Assembly (NCBI GenBank): GCA_964398205.1
Contig: CAYNLU010000001.1
Coordinates: 417 to 64,416 of the forward strand
Reading direction: 5' to 3'
DNA from: an uncultured Candidatus Saccharibacteria bacterium
GTDB lineage: Bacteria > Patescibacteriota > Minisyncoccia > Phycocordibacterales > UBA9973
DNA: 64,000 bases
Shown here one piece after another: positions 1 to 12,058 of the stretch (position 1 is the stretch's first letter; every line of letters starts with the position of its first letter). The notes below the pieces were generated by a model. That model was not told the DNA's origin. It searched no databases and worked only from the letters and a program-made list of their open reading frames with translations. The position numbers and the translations under genes were made by a program.

Positions 1-8
1 TTTATATT

Positions 9-314
9 TTAAACAATCAAATCATACAATTTATTAATTTTACCCAAAGGTATTAAACACTCAGCTCCTATTTCACGATGTTTTATATTAATTTCTTTTT
101 GTAAGTTAGGTTGTAGTATACCTGTTTCAACATCTTTTAAACCAATAGTATAATATTCCTGGTTTATCTGAAAGATAAAAAAAATTTCTCTTTTTATCTT
201 TTCTTCTGTTAATGTTAAAATAGCCTCTTCTTTATAAATAGTTTCGAGTTTTTGGCACCAAGAAATCCACAAATCTTTTTTGCCTTCTTTAATTTTAAAT
301 AAATTCCCTTTCAT
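9..314 (-). CDS. hypothetical protein (101 aa)
   Basis: Intact ORF from the six-frame track. No motif recognised. Confidence 0.35.
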   Translation of the reverse strand: MKGNLFKIKEGKKDLWISWCQKLETIYKEEAILTLTEEKIKREIFFIFQINQEYYTIGLKDVETGILQPNLQKEINIKHREIGAECLIPLGKINKLYDLIV

Positions 315-364
315 TTTTACTATTTAAAAAGAACCTGTAAATCTCATACAGGTTCTTTTGTTAA

Positions 365-826
365 TTAATCGTCATCACCATCATCAATATCATAAGTACA
401 TACACATACTTTTCTATCCCAAATAGATTCGTCGACTACACCGAACAGTTTCTCCATTATAGGAATAGTTGAAAGTAAATAACTAGGCAGTAAAGCATTT
501 CTTTCCTCTTCGTTTTTGGTAGGAGTATGATGAACATATCCTCCCATAACATTTGAACAGAAATCATGATACGATCTTGTGTGTGAAATATGAGCATGAG
601 CAAAATGATCTACTGGAGCAGACATTGGAAATTTTTTACCTTTATTTAAATAAATCATACAAAGATATTTTTTCCATTCAATTTCTAATAATATAAGGTA
701 AGATTCGGCTAAACCTTCCTTATCTTTAATGTGCCCCCTGACATCACTCATATCGGTACTCATAATTCCGGCAAAGACGTTTTTGTCCATACCAACAGGA
801 CAACTAACTGATAAACAACCATTCAT
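365..826 (-). CDS. hypothetical protein, His/Cys-rich with acidic C-terminal tail (DIDDGDDD)
   Basis: 153-aa ORF. The cluster HFAHAHISHTRSYHDFC suggests metal binding. No family assigned. Confidence 0.4.
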   Translation of the reverse strand: MNGCLSVSCPVGMDKNVFAGIMSTDMSDVRGHIKDKEGLAESYLILLEIEWKKYLCMIYLNKGKKFPMSAPVDHFAHAHISHTRSYHDFCSNVMGGYVHHTPTKNEEERNALLPSYLLSTIPIMEKLFGVVDESIWDRKVCVCTYDIDDGDDD

Positions 827-929
827 TTGTTTAAATATTTAAAAAATAAAATAACAATATTGTTATAAATACTATACAAAATTAAATAACATTTGTAAAT
901 ACATACATATGCACTCAAGTTATATCACA

Positions 930-1898
930 TTAAATAAAAAGTAATAAAGAACCTAGGAGCATAAGTATCATTGAAGCAAATTTAATTTTTAAATTTTCTT
1001 TTGAAATATCTTCTTTGATTAATTTTGGCAAAAATTTCGTACCTAAAATAGCGAGGATTAGAACTATTGCTGGCTGGAAACTTCCTACGAGATAAACTAA
1101 AGTTACCGGCGCGAGTAATAAAGCATAATTTGTAAGCAAGTTGCCTGCTATAGTTAAAAACTCACTAAAAATATTTAAAATAAAAATTTTCTTGCCTCCT
1201 GTTTTATTCATAAAATGAAATTCATTGCGATATTTAGGAACAAAAAGATAAATTAAAATCCCAGTAACTCCAAGCCCAATATATTCCCAAAAAGAAGCAA
1301 TCCAGAAATTATTATCTATAGTTACATATTTAAAAATTACTCCTGACACTGCTACTAATAAACAAGCAATAGACATATATAAAACTGGTTTATGCTTTAA
1401 TTTTCTACTTCCTTTTTGCCAATCTATAGATACTAAAGCAACTCCAATCAGTATTATTAAAGAACCTAATAATTCTTTATTAGACAAAGTCTCGCCCAAG
1501 AAAAAATATCCTAAGATATAACCGAAAATAGGTACAGTTAAAAACCAAGGAACAACATTCGAAACCTCTTCTATCTCAAGAGCAAAAAGATAAAACACAA
1601 TCCAAACAATAGTAAGTATTCCAGTAATAAAGAGTAATACCTTATCCCCTAAAGAAATTGAAAATAAATTTGGAGTAAATAAAAATATTAAAACTGCAAT
1701 CAAAATTCCTATTAAACTAGAAAATAAAACTAAACCGCCCGAGCTACGTTCACGTTCTTTCGTAGAAAAATTCGCAACTAAATAGTTATCAAAAATATTT
1801 ACAATTGCCCACAAAAAAGGAGCTCCTAAAGCAATTAAAAACCAATTCATATAAATATGATAACATAAATAAAAATTAGACTCTATTTTAATGTCCAC
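930..1898 (-). CDS. DMT/EamA-family membrane transporter (about 10 TM helices)
   Basis: 322 aa, strongly hydrophobic with repeated TM segments. Two-domain architecture typical of drug/metabolite transporters. Confidence 0.65.
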   Translation of the reverse strand: MDIKIESNFYLCYHIYMNWFLIALGAPFLWAIVNIFDNYLVANFSTKERERSSGGLVLFSSLIGILIAVLIFLFTPNLFSISLGDKVLLFITGILTIVWIVFYLFALEIEEVSNVVPWFLTVPIFGYILGYFFLGETLSNKELLGSLIILIGVALVSIDWQKGSRKLKHKPVLYMSIACLLVAVSGVIFKYVTIDNNFWIASFWEYIGLGVTGILIYLFVPKYRNEFHFMNKTGGKKIFILNIFSEFLTIAGNLLTNYALLLAPVTLVYLVGSFQPAIVLILAILGTKFLPKLIKEDISKENLKIKFASMILMLLGSLLLFI

Positions 1899-2310
1899 TT
1901 ATTCTAGCATTTGCGCGAACCTTTTTCGAGAGCCAAACGGACTAATCGCATACCGTTGCGCTTGCGCGCCTCTGTGCGAAGCACAGAGATTTCCTAAAGG
2001 GAAAGTACGGATATGCGAATACACTGCGGACTCGGTTTTGCGAAGCTATCTTTTCTGGGAAAAGGATTCGCAAAACCTCGGCTGTTTTCCGCGCGCAAGG
2101 AAGGGTCTGGGAGGGAATGCGCGCGGGATTCTCGGCGGGATTTTTGGGGCGGGTAAAAACGAAAAGCAAAACTCAAAACAGAAAATCAAATTGATATTGT
2201 CTCGGCTATTTCTTTTGCTATTGGTTGTCCGAGTCTAAAGGAGATAAGCCCTCGGTATCCGCGTAAGTACACGCGGATACTTTGCCCACCCATGCGCGCA
2301 TGAATTTTGC
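1895..2310 (+). ncRNA. unclassified GC-rich, highly structured element (candidate structured ncRNA; class unknown)
   Basis: About 55% GC and G-rich on the plus strand, inside a roughly 30% GC genome. Several perfect nested helices are visible: CUCUGUGC-GAA-GCACAGAG (1969-1987); GGUUUUGCG...CGCAAAACC enclosing CUUUUC-UGG-GAAAAG (2034-2077); CCGCGCGCA...UGCGCGCGG (2090-2126); AUCCGCGU-AAGUAC-ACGCGGAU (2259-2280). Overlapping antisense ORFs without protein-like features argue against coding. Confidence 0.35.
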
Positions 2311-2313
2311 TCC

Positions 2314-3414
2314 CTAATTAATCCAAATATTTATATCTATTTTTTCTCCAACAATTTGCTCAAAATAAGTTGCTCCTATAGCAATACCAACAGAGGTTAG
2401 ATTTAAATGCTTTAAATTTTTATCCCAAATTTCAAAAACCTTTTTCCCAACATTAATCTTATCTTCAATTTCTTTTCTTACCTCGCCAGTAGATTTAATT
2501 TTATTTTCAAACAGACTCTTTATTTTAGTTCCAATATCAGGTTCAATGGATTCTTTTTTAATGTAATCCTCAATAGAATTTTTATTTCTAAATCGAATAG
2601 ACAAGTTTTCCTTTTCATTTTTACCAATAACTTTTACCTTTAGATCTTCGGGGAGTGAAAGATTATTAATTTCTTCTTCACTTATATCGTTCTGAAACAA
2701 AAAGGAATATTCTTGCTGATAAATCTGATCAAGATTCCATGATCCTATCCCAATACTTCCACACCCCGCATATTCTATATGCTGAAATTGAGAATCTGTA
2801 TTATTAAAATCTATAAAAGGTGATATATTTTTTGCGAAGTAGTTTTTAAATGCGTCCCAAGAGTTGATGTTTAAAAAAGAGACATATCTTAATAAGTAAC
2901 AAAGTGTAATAATTTTTAATTGATCAGAAGTAATTTTACCAATTGTCGTTATTGCCTCATTGTAAACAATATTCTTTAATTCTTCTTTTCCACTTTGGTC
3001 GTTCTTTATGCGGTTTATAACTAAGTCTGCTAATACTGCTCTAAGGTCAGGATTTTGTTTGCGTCCGCTAATAGTCGCAGCTTCCAATAAAGCCATTTGC
3101 GTATCAGGTTCTTTTAGTTTTAAAATTTCTTCTTCTGGCAGAGTAGCTAACTTCTCTTTAAGAATATTTCCAAACTCTTGAGTCCTAAGTCGGTATTCAT
3201 CCTTCGCTTCATTTTTAAAAACCATTAATTTTTGATCAATAACAGACTCGACTAAATCTTTTGCTTCTGTATATGAAAGCCCTTGATAAATAACCGCTTT
3301 ATCAATTTTATTTTCTATCTCCTGGTTAATTTTTACTGTCGGCGAATTAACCTTTTCAGATTTTACACTGATGTTAAATTTGCCAATTATATTTTTAAAC
3401 CAAGATAAATCCAT
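2314..3414 (-). CDS. hypothetical protein (366 aa), third gene of a three-gene operon
   Basis: Intact ORF separated from the upstream gene by a 3-nt gap. No confident family. Confidence 0.55.
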   Translation of the reverse strand: MDLSWFKNIIGKFNISVKSEKVNSPTVKINQEIENKIDKAVIYQGLSYTEAKDLVESVIDQKLMVFKNEAKDEYRLRTQEFGNILKEKLATLPEEEILKLKEPDTQMALLEAATISGRKQNPDLRAVLADLVINRIKNDQSGKEELKNIVYNEAITTIGKITSDQLKIITLCYLLRYVSFLNINSWDAFKNYFAKNISPFIDFNNTDSQFQHIEYAGCGSIGIGSWNLDQIYQQEYSFLFQNDISEEEINNLSLPEDLKVKVIGKNEKENLSIRFRNKNSIEDYIKKESIEPDIGTKIKSLFENKIKSTGEVRKEIEDKINVGKKVFEIWDKNLKHLNLTSVGIAIGATYFEQIVGEKIDINIWIN

Positions 3415-3417
3415 AAA

Positions 3418-4284
3418 TTAAAAGTAAATTTTATTTATTTGATGACCAGTATGTTCATTATCGTAATTTTTGACAATAATTCTATCTCCAGTTTTTTCTA
3501 TTTGAATATTAGACTTGTAATCAGAGTCAATATTTTTATTAAAATCAAACATACTAAACTCATGGACATTAAATTCTAACTTGGGTTCAAATGAAACAAG
3601 TTCAGCTGGAAAATCTATAGAATTTACTTTTTCAATGTCATTAAAAGTTTCCCTCACATCTAAATCTCTTCTTTGTTTTTCTCTTTGATTAAAAAACATA
3701 ATAAGTTCTTGTGGCTTTTGTAAAACTGCCTTAAGACCATCTGTCATCAAGAGATCTTTTTTAAGTCGTAGAGATAAACCTGATTTACTTACATAATAAA
3801 TTGAATCTCTGCCTTGTCCAGCATAGGAATTAAGTTGGTCATAATATTCCGATTCTGAAGCATCACCTTTAAAGTTAAAATCGTGATACTGACTAAGTAC
3901 AAAGGCATGATTAGTGCTAAACTTATGTTTCCATATTTCTTTACTTTCAATATATTGGACTAATTTCTCAAACTGGTCATTAGTAAAATCAATGTCCCCC
4001 TGATTGGCTTCATATTGTGATTCTCTTTTTATCTTCCGCCTTAAGGTAGAAGCATCATCCTCAGACAAAGAATTGATGGTCTTGTTTAACTCTTCAGTTT
4101 TCATTTCTTCAATCTCGGTGGCTGTAAAATTATGATTTGAACGTGCATAAGTACTGTCATCAGAGTAACTTTCTTTTGAAAGTTGTTCCAAAAATGAAAA
4201 AATATCTTGAACAGACCGAAGTTCTTCTTTTGGAATTTCAATATGCTTTTCAAAATTATTAAATTGTGGTTTTTCTAAATTCAT
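3418..4284 (-). CDS. hypothetical protein (288 aa), second gene of a three-gene operon
   Basis: Intact ORF, 4-nt gap to the upstream gene. Acidic and polar, no known motif. Confidence 0.55.
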   Translation of the reverse strand: MNLEKPQFNNFEKHIEIPKEELRSVQDIFSFLEQLSKESYSDDSTYARSNHNFTATEIEEMKTEELNKTINSLSEDDASTLRRKIKRESQYEANQGDIDFTNDQFEKLVQYIESKEIWKHKFSTNHAFVLSQYHDFNFKGDASESEYYDQLNSYAGQGRDSIYYVSKSGLSLRLKKDLLMTDGLKAVLQKPQELIMFFNQREKQRRDLDVRETFNDIEKVNSIDFPAELVSFEPKLEFNVHEFSMFDFNKNIDSDYKSNIQIEKTGDRIIVKNYDNEHTGHQINKIYF

Positions 4285-4288
4285 AAAA

Positions 4289-4882
4289 TTATTTTTTATT
4301 CTTTCCCAAATATAAATTTCTTTCTTTCAATACAAAATTCCAATAATCGGGAATGAACTCTTGATTGCATCTTGATAGGAAATCCCCGAAAAACTTTCTC
4401 GATTCAGGAGTATCTTTTGCTAAATATTCTTTTAATTTTTCTTCACCTAGTTCGTCAAATATCTTATTATCTTTCAAAACTCTAAGCGCCGTTGAAACGT
4501 GAACCCCAGGACGAAGATCGGTGGTAAATTTATTCTCTTTTCTCCCGTTAAAAGCTAATTGCCAAATATAATGTCTAAATTCTTTTCCGTCTAACTTTCG
4601 CATCCAGTCGTAAGTATAAAAAGCTTTTTGTCCTTCTTTTAAATTAGTACGATCTAAGTTTGCGTATTCACCGCGATCGTCTGTAGAGCTTAATACTATT
4701 TTTTGATTACTTTGATCAAAATGATAGTCAGATTGCCCACAAAGATCTCCGTGCCCAGTTAAATTGCCATTTATCGATACAACGTATTGAAAATTAGGAT
4801 TTGTTTTAACAAGATCAAGCATCTTTTTAACCCTTTCCTTTTCTAAATTATTTTCATTATTTTCCGGTAATTTTTCGTACAT
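4289..4882 (-). CDS. hypothetical protein (197 aa), first gene of a three-gene operon
   Basis: Intact ORF directly downstream of tRNA-Ile. Motifs GHGDLCGQSDYHFD and STDDRGEY suggest an enzymatic fold, but none could be assigned. Confidence 0.55.
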   Translation of the reverse strand: MYEKLPENNENNLEKERVKKMLDLVKTNPNFQYVVSINGNLTGHGDLCGQSDYHFDQSNQKIVLSSTDDRGEYANLDRTNLKEGQKAFYTYDWMRKLDGKEFRHYIWQLAFNGRKENKFTTDLRPGVHVSTALRVLKDNKIFDELGEEKLKEYLAKDTPESRKFFGDFLSRCNQEFIPDYWNFVLKERNLYLGKNKK

Positions 4883-4919
4883 AAAAAAAATTAATAATTT
4901 TTAATAAAATTAAACAATG

Positions 4920-4993
4920 TCCGCCCTCTTGGACTCGAACCAAGGACACTTCGAGTATAAGTCGAATGCTCTACCAACTGAGCTAAGGGCGGA
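4920..4993 (-). tRNA. tRNA-Ile (anticodon UAU)
   Basis: Full cloverleaf on the minus strand: acceptor CCGCCCU/AGGGCGG, D-arm GCUC-AGUUGGUA-GAGC, anticodon arm UUCGA-CUUAUAC-UCGAA, 5-nt variable loop, T-arm CUUGG-UUCGAGU-CCAAG, discriminator A. CCA is not encoded. Confidence 0.8.
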
Positions 4994-5651
4994 TTTTAGA
5001 AATTACTGATAAATATTTTAAGGAAGTTAAAATATATTCATATAAATCTCTATTATTAAATATTACGGAGCAAGTTCCTTTACCGAAACCTTTTTGATAA
5101 TTCAAGCTTTTTTTAATACTTTTCTTAACATAAGGCTTATAAAACTGCTCTTTATCTATTCTAAGCTCTTTTTGCCAAAAATCAATAGCTTCATCAATAT
5201 TCATGTCTTGATATAGATGAAGTTTAATTCTTAGGTGAGATTTTTTAACTTTAAATAATTCTAGCCATCTAAGAAAAAATTTAATCATGTTTGGATTGGT
5301 ATTCGTAAATTCAACAGAACAATTTTTAGTTTTTGTCCCTTCTCCCCAATACAAAAATAAACCTGATATGAATAAATCTCTTTTTGATAATTTTCCTATA
5401 TCTTTTGAAACTTTCTTAAAAACTTGATCCAATCTAGCTTCTTTTTTAGCTTTCATGGTATTCCTAAATCTTTCAATTCTAATAGGATTATCATCTCTCA
5501 ATATTTTAATACGTGCATCAGACAAGGGCATATCAGAAAGCCAATTACTCAAAGTACTTTTACTTATTTTTAGACTATCTTTTATTTGACTATAACTCAT
5601 ACCTTTCTTACGCATGGTTATAGCTTTTTGTTTATCTAATTTTCTTGCCAT
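4983..5651 (-). CDS. HTH-domain protein with a LAGLIDADG-like motif (putative homing-endonuclease-like DNA-binding protein)
   Basis: N-terminal resolvase/Hin-like HTH (GMSYSQIKDSLKISKSTLSNWL). Central LFISGLFLYWGEGTK resembles the LAGLIDADG motif. The 3' end overlaps the tRNA by about 10 nt. Confidence 0.5.
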   Translation of the reverse strand: MARKLDKQKAITMRKKGMSYSQIKDSLKISKSTLSNWLSDMPLSDARIKILRDDNPIRIERFRNTMKAKKEARLDQVFKKVSKDIGKLSKRDLFISGLFLYWGEGTKTKNCSVEFTNTNPNMIKFFLRWLELFKVKKSHLRIKLHLYQDMNIDEAIDFWQKELRIDKEQFYKPYVKKSIKKSLNYQKGFGKGTCSVIFNNRDLYEYILTSLKYLSVISKIRP

Positions 5652-5715
5652 AAATACGAACCTACAAATTACTACTATATAAATAGTATACCATAGTTCA
5701 TATATCTAATTATAG

Positions 5716-7599
5716 TTACACTGCTTTAAATTCCTCAGATTTTTTCGGGACGATTCCAAAAGAAGAAATAAGCTCATCGTATTCGGCTTGCTCTAAAGTT
5801 TCTACTTCAATCAATTTCTTTGCGATAGCATCTAAGACTTCTTTTTTATCTTTTAGAACTTGCTCTGCTTTTTCTAATGCTTCGTGAATAATCTTTGAAA
5901 CTTCATTATCTATACTTTTCGCAACTTCTTCAGAGTAAGGCTTTTCGTCATTATTCCGTCCGATATATGCAATAGGTCCGATAACGTTAGACATACCCCA
6001 ACGTGTGACCATAGCGCGAGCCATATTAGTCGCAACTTGCAAATCTGAAGAAGGACCAGTAGTCAAATCTCCGAAAATCATTTTCTCGGCAACGTAACCT
6101 CCGAGAGACATAGCGATATCATCTTGGAATTCTTTACGAGATTGCAATTTTCTATCTTCTAGAGGAAGCTTCAAAGTATATCCTCCTGCAGATCCACGAG
6201 AAATAATCGAAACTTTATGCACAGGATCCGCATCAGGCAAAACCGAAGCCACAAGAGCGTGACCTGCTTCGTGATAAGCAGTTATTTCTTTTTCCTTTTT
6301 AGAAAGCAAATGACTCTTGCGTTCAGGTCCGAGCATAACTTTTTCGATAGCTTTTATCAAGTCTAATTGCGCAACCTTTTTCCTATCTTCACGAGCAGCA
6401 AGTATAGCTCCTTCATTCATCACAGAATATAAATCCGCCCCTGAAAATCCAGGAGTTCGTTCTGCTATAACTCGCAAATTTACATCCGCCTCTAAAGGCT
6501 TTTTCATAGAATGAATTTTAAGAATCTCTTCACGGTCATTACGATCAGGTAAATCTAAAGTTACCTTACGATCAAAACGTCCTGGGCGAACGAGTGCCGG
6601 ATCAAGTACGTCAGCTCGATTAGTCGCTGCCATAACGATAACTTTATCAGTCGGCTCGAAACCATCCATCTCAACTAAGATTTGATTTAAAGTTTGTTCA
6701 CGTTCATCATTACCTCCCCCTACTCCAGTTCCACGTACGCGTCCAATAGCATCTATCTCATCTACGAATATTATCGACGGAGATGCACGCTTTGCCATCT
6801 TGAAAAGATCTCGCACACGAGAAGCTCCAACTCCTACGAACATCTCCACGAATTCAGATCCTGAAAGATGAAAGAAAGGCACTCCTGCTTCCCCTGCTAC
6901 AGCTCGCGCAAGCATAGTTTTACCTGTACCTGGAGCACCGGTAAGCATAACTCCTTTAGGGATACGAGCTCCGATATCTAAGAACTTTTTAGGACTTTTT
7001 AAGAAATCTACTATCTCTCCAAGCTCTTCTTTAGCTTCTTTGGCTCCGGCTACGTCTTTAAAGGTAACGCGATTATTCTTATCATTTGGGTCTGTGATAC
7101 GAGCTTTAGATTGACCGAAAGTAAAAGCTTGCATACCTTGCCCTTTGACTTGACGAGAAAGATACCAAAAGAAAAATACAATAAATAATATAGGTAAAAG
7201 AAAAGGTAAAATATTTAATAAAACTACCATAAATCCGCTAGGATTTTTAACTTCGATATTTACGTTTTGAAGAGCAGTCTTATCTACTCCTAATTCGGAA
7301 AAGGTTTGAGAAAGCGATGCTTCAGCTTCTTTTTTAGTTTTTTTGATTTCTTCATTCAAGAAAACAGCTTCGATTTCTTCACCTTCTACTTTAATACTTT
7401 TAACTTGATTAGTAGATACAGCGTTTGCTAATTCAGAGATTGAGATTTCGGTAGTCTTTTTATTCTCTCCACTAATAGCGAGATAAAGAGCGGTCAAGAT
7501 CATCATAATCAAAATAGTAGAAACTATTGAAGATGATAAAGATCCTTCACTTTTTTTCTTTTTTTTATTACCCTTTTCATTTAAAAAATTTAAATTCAT
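5716..7599 (-). CDS. ftsH: ATP-dependent zinc metalloprotease FtsH
   Basis: N-terminal TM region, AAA+ Walker A GAPGTGKT, second region of homology, and protease HEAGHALV zinc motif. Confidence 0.95.
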
Positions 7600-7664
7600 A
7601 GCTATATGATAGCATAAAAAGTGTTAAAAACGAATAAAAAATAAAAATATGATAGAATCAATAT

Positions 7665-8108
7665 GTGAGTAGTTATATAGAAAACCGCAAAGCATATTTT
7701 GACTATGAAGTCCTCGAAAAATACGAAGGCGGTTTAGAATTACTCGGAACTGAAGTGAAATCTATCCGTAAAGGTAAAGCTTCCCTGCAAGGATCATTTA
7801 TCATCGTACGCGGAGGTGAGGTTTTCCTAATTAATGCAAATATCCAACCTTATCAAGTAAATAATATAGATAAAGATTACGATACTTTAAGGAATCGCAA
7901 AATCCTTTTAACTAAAAAAGAAATCCGAGAATTAGTAGAGACTGACCAAAATAAAAGTTTGACAATAGTACCTTTAGCCTTGTATAATAAAGGACGCAAA
8001 ATCAAAATAGAGATTGCAGTCGTTCGCGGTAAAAAGAAATTCGACAAAAGAGAAAGTATTAAGAAACGAGAAACCGATCGGATTATCAGACGCGAATACA
8101 AGAGGTAG
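7665..8108 (+). CDS. smpB: SsrA-binding protein SmpB
   Basis: Sequence NRKAYFDYEVLEKYEGGLELLGTEVKSIRKGKASLQGSF is typical SmpB. It sits immediately upstream of the tmRNA. Confidence 0.9.
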   Translation: MSSYIENRKAYFDYEVLEKYEGGLELLGTEVKSIRKGKASLQGSFIIVRGGEVFLINANIQPYQVNNIDKDYDTLRNRKILLTKKEIRELVETDQNKSLTIVPLALYNKGRKIKIEIAVVRGKKKFDKRESIKKRETDRIIRREYKR

Positions 8109-8128
8109 TTTTTTGAAAATTGTAAATT

Positions 8129-8511
8129 GGGGATGCAAGGCATAGACAAGAGCCGTATTTATTTATGCATACCGAGATGGATTCTCTCGTAAACTAATCC
8201 AAAGCCTAATTGCAAAATTAGCATCTAAGGTAAAAGTAGCTTCTCCATACTTCAGTATGAAGAACTTTGCTTTTGCTCCAGCTTTCGCTTAAGGAAGCCG
8301 GTGTCAGTTTTATAGACTTCCGATATATAAAAACTGGCAACATTTATCGGGATAAGAAATATATTGCCGAATATGTTTACGAAAATTTAGGCTCGATTAA
8401 AAAATATTTTGCTTATTTAATAATTTTTTAATCTAAAACGATAAATATGCTAAGTATGTAGATTTAAATGAAGAAACCTTTTGCACGGGGGTTCGATTCC
8501 CCCCTTCTCCA
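8129..8511 (+). ncRNA. ssrA: tmRNA (SsrA)
   Basis: 5' GGGGAUGCAAGGCAUAGAC resembles the tmRNA 5' end and D-loop analogue. The 3' tRNA-like domain is GGGGG-UUCGAUU-CCCCC plus acceptor CUUCUCC-A. An internal tag ORF ends ...NFAFAPAFA-UAA (8281-8292). The smpB-ssrA linkage supports the call. Confidence 0.75.
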
Positions 8512-8943
8512 CAAAATAAAAAACCACTTTGTACTTTTACTTAGGTGGTTTTTTGTTTTTTCAATTTAATAACTTTAATAATTATTTTTGATTTAAAAAT
8601 ATAAATCAAGACTATTTTTACCTTAAATAAGAATTTTGGAGTAAAAAGTTTTTTTATTAAAAAAGTTACTAATTGCTCAGTTGAGTTCCTGTTAGGATCT
8701 AAATCTACAATATACTCATATACCGTAAACTCTAAAGTATCTCGAATTGATTTAATTATTTTTCTCATTTCCAAGAACAATTTGATACAAATCCTAGTAT
8801 AGCAAAATGTATAAAAATACGAAGATAACCCTTCATAAAGTTATCCACAGGTTAAAGGTTTTAAGTATTGATTCTATATATAAAAGGAGTATATTAATAC
8901 TTATATTAGTTCTTTCAAAAGACTTGTGAAAGTTAGGTTGTTG

Positions 8944-8980
8944 GATTCGTTTTAAGCTTATATCGAGCTTAAAACGAATC
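8944..8980. repeat. 15-bp perfect inverted repeat (GATTCGTTTTAAGCT / AGCTTAAAACGAATC) with a 7-nt spacer
   Basis: Seen directly in the sequence, about 37 nt upstream of the 9017 ORF and its GGAG Shine-Dalgarno. Confidence 0.6.
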
Positions 8981-9016
8981 TAATAACTTTCTTAACTTTT
9001 TTAAAACACGGAGATA

Positions 9017-9376
9017 ATGAAGAAAATTTTTCTGATTTTATTTCTGGGGTTGATAGCATTAATTTGCGGTCCCCCACAAAGATTGTTCGCTTCAGCGAAT
9101 AGCAACGCCACAACAGTGGCACAGAAAATATATTTTAAGAATACCATCGCCGGCGCAATTGCCAGCACCATTACAAACCAGGAGCTTTCCTGGACAAAAA
9201 CGGTAGCTGCCGAACAGCCTGCATTGCCTGAATACACGGGCAAAACAAATTATTTTTTAAATAACCGGCAATTTGCCAAAATCCCTGATAGTAAACTTTT
9301 CAAGATCATTTATGATAATAATCTAAAAAACAAACTCATCCTGGGTTTCGGGCAACGCCTCCATCAGGAGGCATAA
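9017..9376 (+). CDS. small secreted hypothetical protein (signal peptide), GC-rich codon usage
   Basis: N-terminal MKKIFLILFLGLIALICG signal-like segment, preceded by a GGAG RBS. Local GC is clearly higher than in neighbouring genes. Confidence 0.45.
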   Translation: MKKIFLILFLGLIALICGPPQRLFASANSNATTVAQKIYFKNTIAGAIASTITNQELSWTKTVAAEQPALPEYTGKTNYFLNNRQFAKIPDSKLFKIIYDNNLKNKLILGFGQRLHQEA

Positions 9377-9486
9377 TCAAAGATGTCACCCCGTGGCATC
9401 CCCCTTAGCTACTCTGTAGCACAAGTCTGTACTGATTAGATCCTTATGGGTCAGATCAAAAAAACATAGTAGCAATACTAAATATT

Positions 9487-9514
9487 GACCCGTCCTCCGG
9501 ATGGGTCTTTTTTA
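9487..9514 (+). terminator. rho-independent terminator (GACCCGUCC...GGAUGGGUC + U-tract)
   Basis: 9-bp stem followed by TTTTTTATT, downstream of the 9017-9376 gene. Confidence 0.6.
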
Positions 9515-9543
9515 TTCCCATTTTTATATGATAAAATTAAATT

Positions 9544-10917
9544 ATGAATAAACCAACTTTAACTGTTTCGGGATATCGCGGGATTTGGGGCGAGAGTTTG
9601 ACTACCGATATTGCTCGCGAATATACTCGCGCTTTTATTAAATACTTGAAAGAATACGTAGGCTTAGAAAGACCGAAGGTTCTAGTAGCTATCGACGGAC
9701 GCGAAAGCGGTAAAGAAATTAAAGAGAATATTATCGAAGAATTTTTAAAATATGGCGTCGATGTAATCAACGGCGAATTACTCCCTACCCCGGTACTAAT
9801 CTGGAGTATTAGAAAATTCAGCTATGACGGCGGAATAATGATAACCGCAAGTCACAACCCTCGCGAATATAACGGACTGAAATTTATAAATAAAAATGCT
9901 TCTTTCTTAAATCAAACTGAGATAAATCAGATAAATTTATATAAAGAGAAAAATGATTTAGAAGTCGCGAGCGTACCCGGAACTTTACTAAATAAAGAGA
10001 TAGAAATTCCAAACTTTGTAGATACTTACGTAGATAATCTGATTGCAAACTTTGATAAAGAATTAATAAGTAGCAAAAGGTTCAAGGTAGTTGCCGATAT
10101 GATAAATGCTTCGGCTTGTGCTATCGATCCGGATTTATTCGCGGAGCTTGGTATCGAACTTGTACCGCTTAATAATATTCCTGACGGAGACTTTGGGCAT
10201 AAACCGGAGCCACTTGCCGAAAACCTAACAAATTTATCAGAATTCGTAAAAGATAATAATGCTGATATTGGTTTTGCTCATGATCCAGATGGAGATAGAC
10301 TAGTCGTCGTTGATGAGCATGGTGAAATAATTTTTGAAGAATATACTTTGGCACTTTGCATAGAAAGCGTTTTGAGTAAAGAAGAAAATCAAGGTCGCGA
10401 TATTGTCGTAAATTTATCAACTTCAAATACTAATCGAGATATTGCAGAGAAATACGGTGGTACAACTTACCTTTCTCCAGTTGGAGAACTAAATGTAGTA
10501 GAAGAAATGAAAAAAAGAAACGCAATTATCGGAGGTGAAGGTAGCGGAGGGGTTATCTACCCTAAGCTCAACTTTGCTCGAGACGGTTTCGTGGCGATAT
10601 TACTCATACTCGATATGCTCGCTCGTGAAAATAAAAAGCTAAGTGAAAAAGTAGCTGAATTACCTAAATACTTTATGCAAAAAATTAAAGGAGAAATCAA
10701 AGAGAACTTTCCTAATAGTCTAGAGCAATTTAAAGAAACTTTTAAAGACGGCAAAATAACTGATACTGACGGATTGCGGTACGATTTCCCAGATAAATCC
10801 TTTATTCATTTTAGACGTTCGAATACAGAGCCAATCTGGCGTTTACTTGCAGAAGCAAAAGACGAAAATAGACTAAAAGAGCTAATAAAACAAGCACAGG
10901 AAATATTAAATGCTTAA
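9544..10917 (+). CDS. alpha-D-phosphohexomutase family protein (phosphoglucosamine mutase / phosphomannomutase-like)
   Basis: Active-site loop TASHNP, and SGYRGIWGE resembles the GxSGxRG motif. The 457-aa, four-domain length fits the family. Confidence 0.8.
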   Translation: MNKPTLTVSGYRGIWGESLTTDIAREYTRAFIKYLKEYVGLERPKVLVAIDGRESGKEIKENIIEEFLKYGVDVINGELLPTPVLIWSIRKFSYDGGIMITASHNPREYNGLKFINKNASFLNQTEINQINLYKEKNDLEVASVPGTLLNKEIEIPNFVDTYVDNLIANFDKELISSKRFKVVADMINASACAIDPDLFAELGIELVPLNNIPDGDFGHKPEPLAENLTNLSEFVKDNNADIGFAHDPDGDRLVVVDEHGEIIFEEYTLALCIESVLSKEENQGRDIVVNLSTSNTNRDIAEKYGGTTYLSPVGELNVVEEMKKRNAIIGGEGSGGVIYPKLNFARDGFVAILLILDMLARENKKLSEKVAELPKYFMQKIKGEIKENFPNSLEQFKETFKDGKITDTDGLRYDFPDKSFIHFRRSNTEPIWRLLAEAKDENRLKELIKQAQEILNA

Positions 10918-10988
10918 AGTATGGATTCAAGGCTTTAAAATTGACTTTTTAACTAAATTAAGCTATTATTCTTAATAGCTAAAATACA

Positions 10989-11492
10989 TTGCGAGAAAGA
11001 ATAAACAACCAAATAAGGGCTAAAGAATTACGAGTTATAGATAATAACAATCAAAATCTCGGAGTTTTGACTTTAGCGGAAGCTTTAAGGATGGCAGAAA
11101 ATTCTGGTTTAGATTTAATTGAAATCTCACCAAATGCATTCCCTCCTGTCGCAAAGATAGCTGATTTTGGCAAACATCAATACGAAGCAAACAAAAAAGC
11201 TAAAAAGGCTAAAGCGAATGCTAGTACTACTGAAACTAAATCAATTCAAGTAAAAGTAGCTACTGGTGATCACGATTTAGAATTAAAAGCAAAAAATGCT
11301 TCAAAGTGGCTCAAAGAGGGTCATCGTATAAAGGTTGAGCTTTTCTTATCGGGAAGATCAAAATTTATGAAAGAAGATTTTTTGAAAGAAAGATTAGATA
11401 GGGTTTTACGTTTAATTACTGAAGAATATAAAATATCTCAACCTATCACGAAAGGTCCGAAAGGTTTCGTAACAACAATAGAAAAGAAATAA
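10989..11492 (+). CDS. infC: translation initiation factor IF-3
   Basis: LRVIDNNNQNLGVLTLAEALRMAENSGLDLIEISPNAFPPVAKIADFGKHQYE. Non-AUG (TTG/ATT) start as usual for infC. First gene of infC-rpmI-rplT. Confidence 0.85.
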   Translation: MRERINNQIRAKELRVIDNNNQNLGVLTLAEALRMAENSGLDLIEISPNAFPPVAKIADFGKHQYEANKKAKKAKANASTTETKSIQVKVATGDHDLELKAKNASKWLKEGHRIKVELFLSGRSKFMKEDFLKERLDRVLRLITEEYKISQPITKGPKGFVTTIEKK

Positions 11493-11518
11493 ATTAATAT
11501 TATTAATAAAAAGCAAAT

Positions 11519-11704
11519 ATGAAAACAAATAAATCATATACAAAAAGATTGAAATTGACGAAAAATGGTAAAGTTATCGCTCGCAAGCCTGGCTTTAATC
11601 ATTTTAATTCAAGACAAACTCGAACAAGTCAATTAGCAGGTCGTAAAGGTATCGCTCTTGTAATCAAGAACAAGCCTAAGAGTCACTTATTACCATTTAA
11701 TTAA
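11519..11704 (+). CDS. rpmI: 50S ribosomal protein L35
   Basis: 61-aa basic protein between infC and rplT. Confidence 0.85.
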   Translation: MKTNKSYTKRLKLTKNGKVIARKPGFNHFNSRQTRTSQLAGRKGIALVIKNKPKSHLLPFN

Positions 11705-11713
11705 TAAAATAAA

Positions 11714-12058
11714 ATGACAAGAGTTAAGAAAGGAGTACATGCCTTAAAAAGAAGAAGAAGTACATTAAAGCAAACTAAAGGTATGCGTCACGGTCGTAGT
11801 ACCAAAGAAAGACAAGCAAAAGACGCTTTATTGCACGCTGGAGCTTATGCTTTCGCTCACCGTAGAGACAAAAAATCAGACAATCGTAAACTTTGGAATG
11901 TGAAGATTAATGCAGGTAGTAGAGAAGAAGGTTTATCATATTCAAAACTTATAAATTCTTTAAAGAAAAATAAGATTGAATTAGATAGAAAAATCTTAGC
12001 TTCCCTAGCAGAAAACAATCCTGAGACTTTCAAAAGAGTACTCGCTAAAGTTAAATAA
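11714..12058 (+). CDS. rplT: 50S ribosomal protein L20
   Basis: MTRVKKGVHALKRRR...HAGAYAFAHRRDKK is a typical L20 N-terminus. Confidence 0.9.
   Translation: MTRVKKGVHALKRRRSTLKQTKGMRHGRSTKERQAKDALLHAGAYAFAHRRDKKSDNRKLWNVKINAGSREEGLSYSKLINSLKKNKIELDRKILASLAENNPETFKRVLAKVK

Follow-up and report, generated by a model that had tools for sequence, protein, structure and literature searches.

A GC-rich, structured segment in the genome of an uncultured Candidatus Saccharibacteria bacterium carries one copy of a repeat, here called the arm, which is well supported as the boundary repeat of an architecture widespread in the Candidate Phyla Radiation (CPR, or Patescibacteria). In metagenomes, neighbouring arms mostly form inverted pairs that enclose diverse cargo genes. 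The stretch of DNA analysed (the window) covers 64,000 nt, positions 417 to 64,416 of contig CAYNLU010000001.1, and the segment occupies its positions 1895-2313, next to three tightly packed genes that we name P1, P2 and P3. The original prediction for this locus was a compact accessory island marked by a tRNA-Ile(UAU) gene and a helix-turn-helix (HTH) gene, possibly a defence or toxin-type system. The reading that we put forward, to which we assign a probability of about one half, distinguishes three layers, namely a conserved core, a mosaic of exchanged genes (P1-P3), and the arm with an optional extension called module B, and takes arms to be boundary modules of cargo-exchange sites. Related loci and metagenome contigs compared with the window are designated by L-numbers (L011, L142 and so on).

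A family of inverted repeats in metagenomes

With 42-49% GC against a background of about 28%, and folding z-scores of -5.1 and -4.1 relative to shuffled sequences on the two strands, the segment is as GC-rich and structured as first described. It is neither a single element nor specific to the island: it joins an arm to module B, and the arm is a widespread repeat, which explains the presence of a GC-rich element in the window. Its parts are as follows.

About 1893-2160, plus strand: arm repeat copy of the window type, ~270 nt, placed by nhmmer against the L014 and L142 arms; inner (3') end toward the cargo
About 2160-2313, strand unassigned: module B, an optional structured extension shared with L156/L216, L203-right and L182
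2031-2077 (2031-2044 with 2067-2077), plus strand: helix 1, a ~47-bp palindrome, CTCGGTTTTGCGAA ... TTCGCAAAACC; 93.5% of cells paired
2089-2126 (2089-2096 with 2119-2126), plus strand: helix 2, an 8-bp stem, CCGCGCGC/GCGCGCGG, with the purine-rich loop AAGGAAGGGTCTGGGAGGGAAT; covariation
1929→1901, minus strand: predicted outward extended -10 promoter, sigma-70-like, TCGAAA-17 nt-TGcTAGAAT; consensus scan

Initial nhmmer matches to the middle of the segment lay next to csoR-copA in L014 and 3 kb past tRNA-Ile in L011. The window arm, present as a single copy in the 64 kb, matches the arms of L014 (E 1.6e-11) and L142 (E 4.4e-13) and aligns with those of L156 and L158 and with both arms of L203. 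Further copies were retrieved from metagenome contigs with one exact hairpin pattern, CTCGGTTTTGCGAA-N15-35-TTCGCAAAACC, which occurs on at least 120 contigs; 118 of those listed are significantly homologous to the arm core. The counts of pairs, cargo and flanking genes given from here on are among the matches listed. Two or more copies are carried by 33 contigs, and in 31 of 35 sets of neighbouring copies the two are inverted (+,-), so that their inner ends look toward one another across 1392-4786 nt. The arms of a pair are mostly 92-99% identical; those of L142 are about 94-100% identical over 415 nt, with sharp boundaries. Arms fall into two types that share a ~135-nt 3' module: a long type of about 415 nt (L014, L142) and the window type of about 270 nt (the window, L156, L158 and both L203 arms). 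Many contigs start or stop inside an arm (for example L131, L136, L172 and L181), as expected of a dispersed repeat.

Two loci depart from the simple pair. In L122 (804-6715), two arm-cargo-arm units stand back to back (+,-,+,-), separated by ~0.9 kb that holds a serine-recombinase fragment, so that arm units can form arrays. In L014 (2440-5421), a lone long-type arm is followed by a hairpin and T-run, a csoR-like repressor and a copper P-type ATPase, with no second arm. The pattern has no match in viral contigs, and a viral origin of arms was rejected on this basis. The idea of a single-copy, clade-specific RNA gene was likewise abandoned, the metagenome copies being multi-copy inverted pairs. 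In the literature we found no description of such an element in CPR. Against Rfam 15, searched down to E<=10, the segment of the window has no match at gathering score (the best sub-threshold scores are 15-17 bits) and the full-length L142 arm reaches at most 26.6 bits, for the DUF805 RNA, against a gathering score of 51.1. Known RNAs, among them RNase P, 6S, the signal recognition particle (SRP) RNA, group I/II introns, OLE, GOLLD, ROOL, HEARO and raiA, were set aside as identities for want of a gathering-score match.

Module B is common to L156/L216, L203-right and L182, and missing from L158 and L203-left. In L101, the 48 nt of module B next to P3 accompany this gene. Because its minus strand ends in a U-rich tract, module B may be the 3' untranslated region (UTR) or terminator of the P1-P3 transcript.

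Covarying helices and a conserved, predicted outward promoter

Since the arm alignment exceeded 400 columns, covariation was assessed by explicit pair counting on 59 distinct copies. The two helices of the shared module, which lie toward the cargo end of the arm, are about 93% paired, with double changes at 15 of 22 pairs. Their covariation score is 0.167, against 0.055 for column shuffles (none of 500 reached the observed value) and 0.02-0.08 when helix partners are slid. Most of the signal comes from helix 2, where 7 of 8 pairs show compensatory changes (for example, G-C 27 versus C-G 24) around a nearly constant, purine-rich loop. Helix 1 is nearly invariant, and its rare variants are compensatory. 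Long arms contain further nested helices, also with compensatory changes.

The second conserved feature is a promoter-like sequence at the outer end, directed away from the cargo. Its hexamers are the most conserved columns of that end, and 26 of the 30 full-length arms contain a match, which includes the TG extension in 23; the equivalent in the L142 arm is TTCAAA-16-TACAAT. The predicted target is the gene for an EamA/drug-metabolite transporter (DMT) in the window, and often a recombinase gene elsewhere. As the predicted -10 ends at 1901, ATG 1850, and not GTG 1898, is the most likely start of the DMT gene, and gene callers place the start at the position equivalent to 1850. No conserved sequence was seen upstream of the arm on the plus strand. 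A resemblance of the arm's outer end to a decayed tRNA 3' half (TGGCGG…ATTCGAAC) was considered and dropped, the bases being those of the -10/-35 region of the outward promoter.

Cargo and outer flanks

Paired arms enclose one to six genes, which may point in either direction, and the 82 open reading frames (ORFs) of this cargo fall into as many as 76 clusters. Functions include ABC transporters, S-adenosylmethionine-dependent (SAM) methyltransferases, DpnII-type restriction-modification (R-M), DNA methylases, NUDIX and NYN proteins, a vitamin transporter, an orotidine monophosphate (OMP) decarboxylase, SPFH proteins and one IS110; a Panacea-type antitoxin stands beside the L156 arm. No common recombinase is found inside the cargo among the matches listed. 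Comparisons of arms between contigs gave 36 cases of the same outer flank with different cargo and 6 of the reverse, such as L113 and L212, whose similar cargo (91%) lies in different outer flanks. A 135-aa cargo protein beside the L156 arm (L156:201-608) is homologous to the C-terminus of a 522-aa protein of L101 (299-1867), a shared part which shows that arm-linked loci reshuffle portions of their cargo.

A single gene recurs in the outer flanks, that of a canonical large serine recombinase, which combines Resolvase, Recombinase and Zn_ribbon_recom domains. In L142 (3564-5072), the three domain matches have E values of 1.4e-18, 4.6e-15 and 3.6e-08, which qualifies the protein as a large serine recombinase. 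Of the 54 arms whose outer flank is visible over 2 kb or more, 10 have the gene beside them (~19%). It usually reads away from the arm, starts at a distance of 300-580 nt from the core and ends against the 3' end of a tRNA gene, which specifies Ser, Leu, Gly, Val, Thr, Arg or Ala in different contigs. More generally, 18 of 87 arms have a tRNA gene no more than 700 nt away, where 6% would be expected. Three complete units (L123, L142 and L167; n=3 only) were inspected at their outer junctions and showed no target-site duplication.

The recombinase gene of L142 is itself bracketed by ~120-nt inverted repeats (3279-3397 and 4959-5078) that are 97-100% complementary, and a third, more diverged copy lies outside the left arm (L142:18-92). 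From their sequence, these repeats would pair the 5' and 3' UTRs of the recombinase mRNA or form a DNA cruciform.

A species-specific mosaic beside a conserved core

The first 9 kb of the window have all their genes on the minus strand, except smpB and the tmRNA gene on the plus strand. Besides the arm and module B, the locus comprises the following genes.

930-1850/1898, minus strand: EamA/DMT transporter gene, 306 aa from ATG 1850; Pfam EamA E 9.8e-18
2314-3414, minus strand: P3, 366 aa; LPO_1073/Vpar_1526 family
3418-4284, minus strand: P2, 288 aa; CPR-restricted orphan
4289-4882, minus strand: P1, 197 aa; CPR-restricted orphan
4919-4992, minus strand: tRNA-Ile(UAU), found by ARAGORN and Rfam; 3' end toward the island
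4983-5651, minus strand: HTH gene, 222 aa; HTH_23 E 1.7e-5; 10-nt overlap with the tRNA
5716-7599, minus strand: ftsH, flanking the HTH gene

These coordinates bear out the original description of the layout: three tight minus-strand ORFs separated by gaps of 4 nt (P1/P2) and 3 nt (P2/P3), an HTH gene whose 3' end overlaps the tRNA, by 10 nt, and ftsH and the DMT gene as flanks. The synteny comparison proposed with it was run as an ftsH-anchored scan of species-representative genomes, which places the organism in Patescibacteria/Paceibacteria as a Nomurabacteria-like member (best FtsH identity 75%). P1, P2, P3 and the DMT gene occur within 10 kb of ftsH in none of 80 relatives (0/80), while tRNA-Ile is retained; P1-P3 are thus accessory DNA, as had been proposed. 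The further suggestion of a coherent defence or toxin-type system fared less well. Outside this species the three genes were never seen together, each standing alone or with other partners, no homologue of P1 or P2 lies beside any diverged P3, on which ground they were rejected as P3 partners, and PADLOC-DB 2.0 gave no system match for P1-P3, the best hits being PtuB (E 0.0057) and REase_II (E 0.04), with nothing for P1.

DNA homology with other loci ends within a few nucleotides of gene boundaries: the P2 match to L222 runs from window position 4267→3418 at 86% identity, and the P3 match to L101 from 3416→2266 at 90%. P2 is 85% identical between the window organism and the L222 organism, where FtsH is 69% and SmpB 60% identical, which indicates recent horizontal exchange. 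Their absence from 80 relatives, their separate occurrence elsewhere and the coincidence of homology with gene limits mark the three genes as an accessory mosaic and not a three-gene system: it is well supported that P1, P2 and P3, which fill some 3 kb on the 3' side of a conserved tRNA, are a species-specific set whose members are exchanged independently. Each gene circulates separately among Paceibacteria, and in the window the three are packed into one transcription unit. In L222 (7915-8876), a P2 homologue with 85% identity lies 11 nt past the tRNA-Ile(UAU) gene, the pair being inverted relative to ftsH; the tRNA-Ile/P2 junction hence recurs, and the rest of the island does not.

A classical tRNA-integrated island would combine absence of the block in relatives, which is seen here, with an integrase and a distal repeat of the tRNA, which are not. 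Domain and profile searches detected no integrase or recombinase domain in P1, P2 or P3, and window positions 1-12000 contain neither an exact repeat of at least 11 nt of the tRNA 3' end nor a match with up to 7 mismatches to its 3' 25 nt. All sampled strains of the species share the same layout, with one 52-kb contig ending exactly at the tRNA, and no strain without the island was seen among contigs carrying the identical HTH protein. Same-species strains do diverge just past the DMT gene (L002:5442-7928 versus L004:4233-5713 and window 9-826): L002 has an acetyltransferase and an adenylate kinase (ADK)/GTP-cyclohydrolase fusion, and the window and L004 have a UCP032817-like gene, DUF6176 and a 217-aa gene. 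The variable region therefore reaches beyond the arm.

The three proteins had all been left without a family. This still holds for P1 and P2 and no longer for P3, which sequence evidence places clearly in the LPO_1073/Vpar_1526 family and which is a promiscuous accessory gene. It matches NCBIfam NF045477 over the full profile (positions 1-257/257; 259.4 bits against a cutoff of 45; E 3.7e-77), Pfam PF28206 (precomputed on an identical protein) and phrog_19542 (E 6e-24). Its 203 detectable homologues are mostly from Patescibacteria, and this family, which P3 matches at full length, sits in defence-rich neighbourhoods: a homologue lies inside a type I R-M operon with a serine recombinase nearby (L093), and another beside type III-like R-M and toxin-antitoxin genes (L096). 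Others follow a tRNA-binding-domain gene (L091), a trypsin-like protease (L098, 73% identity), or an HTH gene and the 522-aa protein mentioned above (L101, 93% identity). The family is possibly related to Abi_alpha, a relation that rests on precomputed PF14337 matches in 2 of 120 P3 homologues. The AlphaFold2 (AF2) model of P3 (predicted local distance difference test, pLDDT, 84) is all-alpha with a winged-helix-like subdomain, and fold searches returned at most winged-helix similarities of ~70 residues, with no solved relative.

P1 and P2 families are CPR-only, with 11 and 16 clusters, respectively, among 5.8 billion sequences; a P2 profile search collected 114 representatives among 1.84 billion. 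Four long, distant P2 relatives of 616-650 aa (P0205, P0216, P0233 and P0250) have an N-terminal Fic/DOC domain and a C-terminal half homologous to the whole of P2, which may thus be a Fic-associated module that occurs by itself. Diverged members of both families stand singly in housekeeping surroundings: P2 genes lie between tRNA-Ile(UAU) and ftsH (L222), in a dcw/mur cluster (L223) and beside a metallophosphatase, and a diverged P1 stands alone next to gap/gatB (L224). The weak P1 match to DUF2326, like those of P2 to PtuB and HCBP, fell below thresholds and was set aside.

On the other side of the mosaic, the genes for FtsH, the HTH protein and tRNA-Ile(UAU) belong to the conserved core and lie outside the island. 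The order tmRNA-smpB-ftsH followed by tRNA-Ile(UAU) was found in about 20 Paceibacteria relatives (the tRNA lies downstream of ftsH at, for example, L011:12488-12562, L012:11902-11976 and L013:11957-12031), and in L022 an HTH-gene homologue stands between ftsH and tRNA-Ile. The tRNA and HTH genes are therefore conserved neighbours of ftsH and not insertion markers, and their proposed role as signs of mobile DNA falls away. Most bacteria decode AUA with a TilS-modified tRNA-Ile(CAU), and tilS commonly adjoins ftsH; given this usual neighbourhood, the placement of a tRNA-Ile(UAU) directly after ftsH is curious.

The HTH gene is a member of a tRNA-linked family and no island cargo. In 8 of 9 homologues outside the species, a same-strand tRNA gene lies directly downstream, often overlapping; the tRNAs are Ile, Gly (three times), Asp (twice), Val and Met/Val. 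Members of the family are as follows.

L022:4802-5437, L036:14010-14636, L041:13135-13752, L188:1423-2076
L123:6269-6784, L149:4241-4834, L141:34-375, L212:921-1301

The N-terminus of the protein is a resolvase/transposase-type HTH (HTH_23), and a LYWGEGxK motif in its C-terminal domain is invariant in an alignment of 8 homologues. The label of LAGLIDADG-like, given to it earlier, could not be verified: no LAGLIDADG profile matched at E<=1 in Pfam or NCBIfam, and a PDB search with the protein and an 8-sequence family profile recovered the N-terminal HTH alone and no LAGLIDADG enzyme. The predicted order of secondary-structure elements is compatible with the alpha-beta-beta-alpha-beta-beta-alpha core of LAGLIDADG enzymes (AF2 model from a single sequence, pLDDT 46).

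Arms as proposed boundary modules, and the alternatives

How might such boundaries work? The structured body of the arm would insulate neighbouring genes from transcription of the cargo, and the arm would supply the gene in the flank (the DMT gene here, the recombinase elsewhere) with a standard promoter and so restore its expression. The conserved arm sequence would supply sites or homology for cargo replacement, either through the serine recombinase or through homologous exchange after DNA uptake. The window would then represent a half-unit that lacks a recombinase and in which the cargo has an arm at one end and, where the second arm would stand, tRNA-Ile at the other. Several points weigh against this account. 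The outward promoter is a consensus match only, most arms have no recombinase beside them, nor does the window contain one, and the window has a single arm with a tRNA at the other side; recombination between inverted sites would yield inversion and no excision. On the structural side, the invariance of helix 1 is partly a matter of ascertainment, because all copies were recruited with one exact pattern, counts of G·U versus A·C are uninformative on the folded strand, and no intrinsic terminator was detected on either strand of the window and L142 arms.

In a bolder version, arms and the large serine recombinase would form an integron-like gene-capture platform specific to CPR/Patescibacteria: the recombinase, expressed from the outward promoter, would insert, invert or exchange the cargo between two inverted arms by acting on the ~50-bp palindrome of helix 1 or on the folded DNA of the arm. 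We regard this version as a long shot. If true, arms would be the first structured sites for recombination and insulation described in a cassette system based on a serine recombinase, and one of the main routes by which genes enter and leave these reduced genomes.

The arm-cargo-arm unit could instead be a non-autonomous cargo transposon with terminal inverted repeats of ~270-415 bp, moved in trans, possibly by the serine recombinase, and the window a decayed half-element. The near-identity and inversion of paired arms, the tandem units of L122, the frequent contig breaks inside arms, as for dispersed repeats, and the six cases of similar cargo in different flanks (L113/L212 among them) all fit this view; outward promoters, too, are common at insertion-sequence ends. 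We nevertheless hold it to be unlikely: the three complete units show no target-site duplications, the cargo, whose 82 ORFs represent 76 clusters, includes no transposase, and a constant flank with changing cargo is six times commoner than the reverse. Single arms also exist (the window, L014), and viral contigs lack matches. The GC-richness of the arm in an AT-rich genome, its strong folding z-scores, its covarying helices around conserved loops and its sharp conserved boundaries are what one would expect of a stand-alone structured non-coding RNA gene, housekeeping or regulatory, whose closeness to variable genes is incidental. Such a gene should hardly be present in up to 4 copies within 6.7 kb or in systematic inverted pairs (31/35), and the sole conserved promoter is on the opposite strand and points outward, with no conservation upstream on the plus strand, no terminator detected, and no Rfam match including RNase P, 6S, SRP and the large non-coding RNA families. 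We consider this explanation very doubtful. The narrower idea of a plus-strand RNA gene with its own promoter and terminator is unsupported for the same reasons, the conserved promoter being on the minus strand and outward and no terminator being found.

The least probable of the explanations considered, and one that we judge highly improbable, is that P1-P2-P3 form a defence or toxin-type system of three components, to which the structured element would contribute the RNA. A tight operon with gaps of 4 and 3 nt, P3 homologues near R-M and toxin-antitoxin genes (a few of which score as Abi_alpha), the fusion of a P2-like module to Fic/DOC toxin-type domains, and the 48 nt past the P3 stop that travel with P3 speak for it. 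The trio is, however, never together outside this species, each gene occurring alone or with other partners, no PADLOC model matches, and the arm accompanies unrelated cargo such as transporters, methyltransferases and NUDIX genes.

Significance and relation to known systems

CPR/Patescibacteria have tiny genomes with few recognised mobile elements, and their gain and loss of accessory genes is poorly understood. The finding of a conserved, structured repeat with a predicted promoter around highly diverse cargo, often beside tRNA genes and a serine recombinase, on at least 120 contigs that come from many environments suggests an architecture dedicated to exchange. The sequence handle CTCGGTTTTGCGAA…TTCGCAAAACC…GGGTCTGGG locates variable loci in CPR genomes, and the arm offers a candidate promoter/insulator part and a candidate recombinase-site pair. 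P1, P2 and P3 are better studied as separate modules than as one system.

Among described systems, the tycheposons of Prochlorococcus are defined by an internal integrase, hallmark replication genes and partial tRNA repeats (bioRxiv 10.1101/2020.12.28.424599). The arm loci resemble them in their streamlined genomes, in tRNA-adjacent variable cargo that mixes transport, metabolic and defence genes, and in site-specific recombinases, a minority of which are large serine recombinases in tycheposons. The island of the window differs in lacking integrase, replication genes and tRNA repeat, and inverted structured arms of 270-415 nt are outside the tycheposon definition.

Mobile insertion cassettes, such as MIC231 of Bacillus, elements resembling composite transposons, and miniature inverted-repeat transposable elements (MITEs), such as the Correia elements of Neisseria, are known for passenger genes or repeats with outward promoters. 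Arm units have in common with them inverted repeats around transposase-free passengers, outward promoters, and repeats that form RNA structures and affect their neighbours. In length, arms exceed typical terminal inverted repeats 10- to 20-fold, and they contain internal covarying helices; their units show no target-site duplications (n=3), and no cognate insertion sequence was identified for them.

Integrons provide the third comparison. The arm-linked recombinase is of the large serine type and not a tyrosine IntI, and stands at only about 19% of arms; no per-cassette attC was seen in multi-gene arm cargo, which is closed by an inverted arm copy, and the arm promoter is directed away from the cargo. 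The likeness lies in the plan of the locus: a recombinase gene divergent from a conserved, promoter-bearing site, variable and promoterless-looking cargo next to it, folded DNA that resembles a recombination site, and one platform that carries different cargo from place to place.

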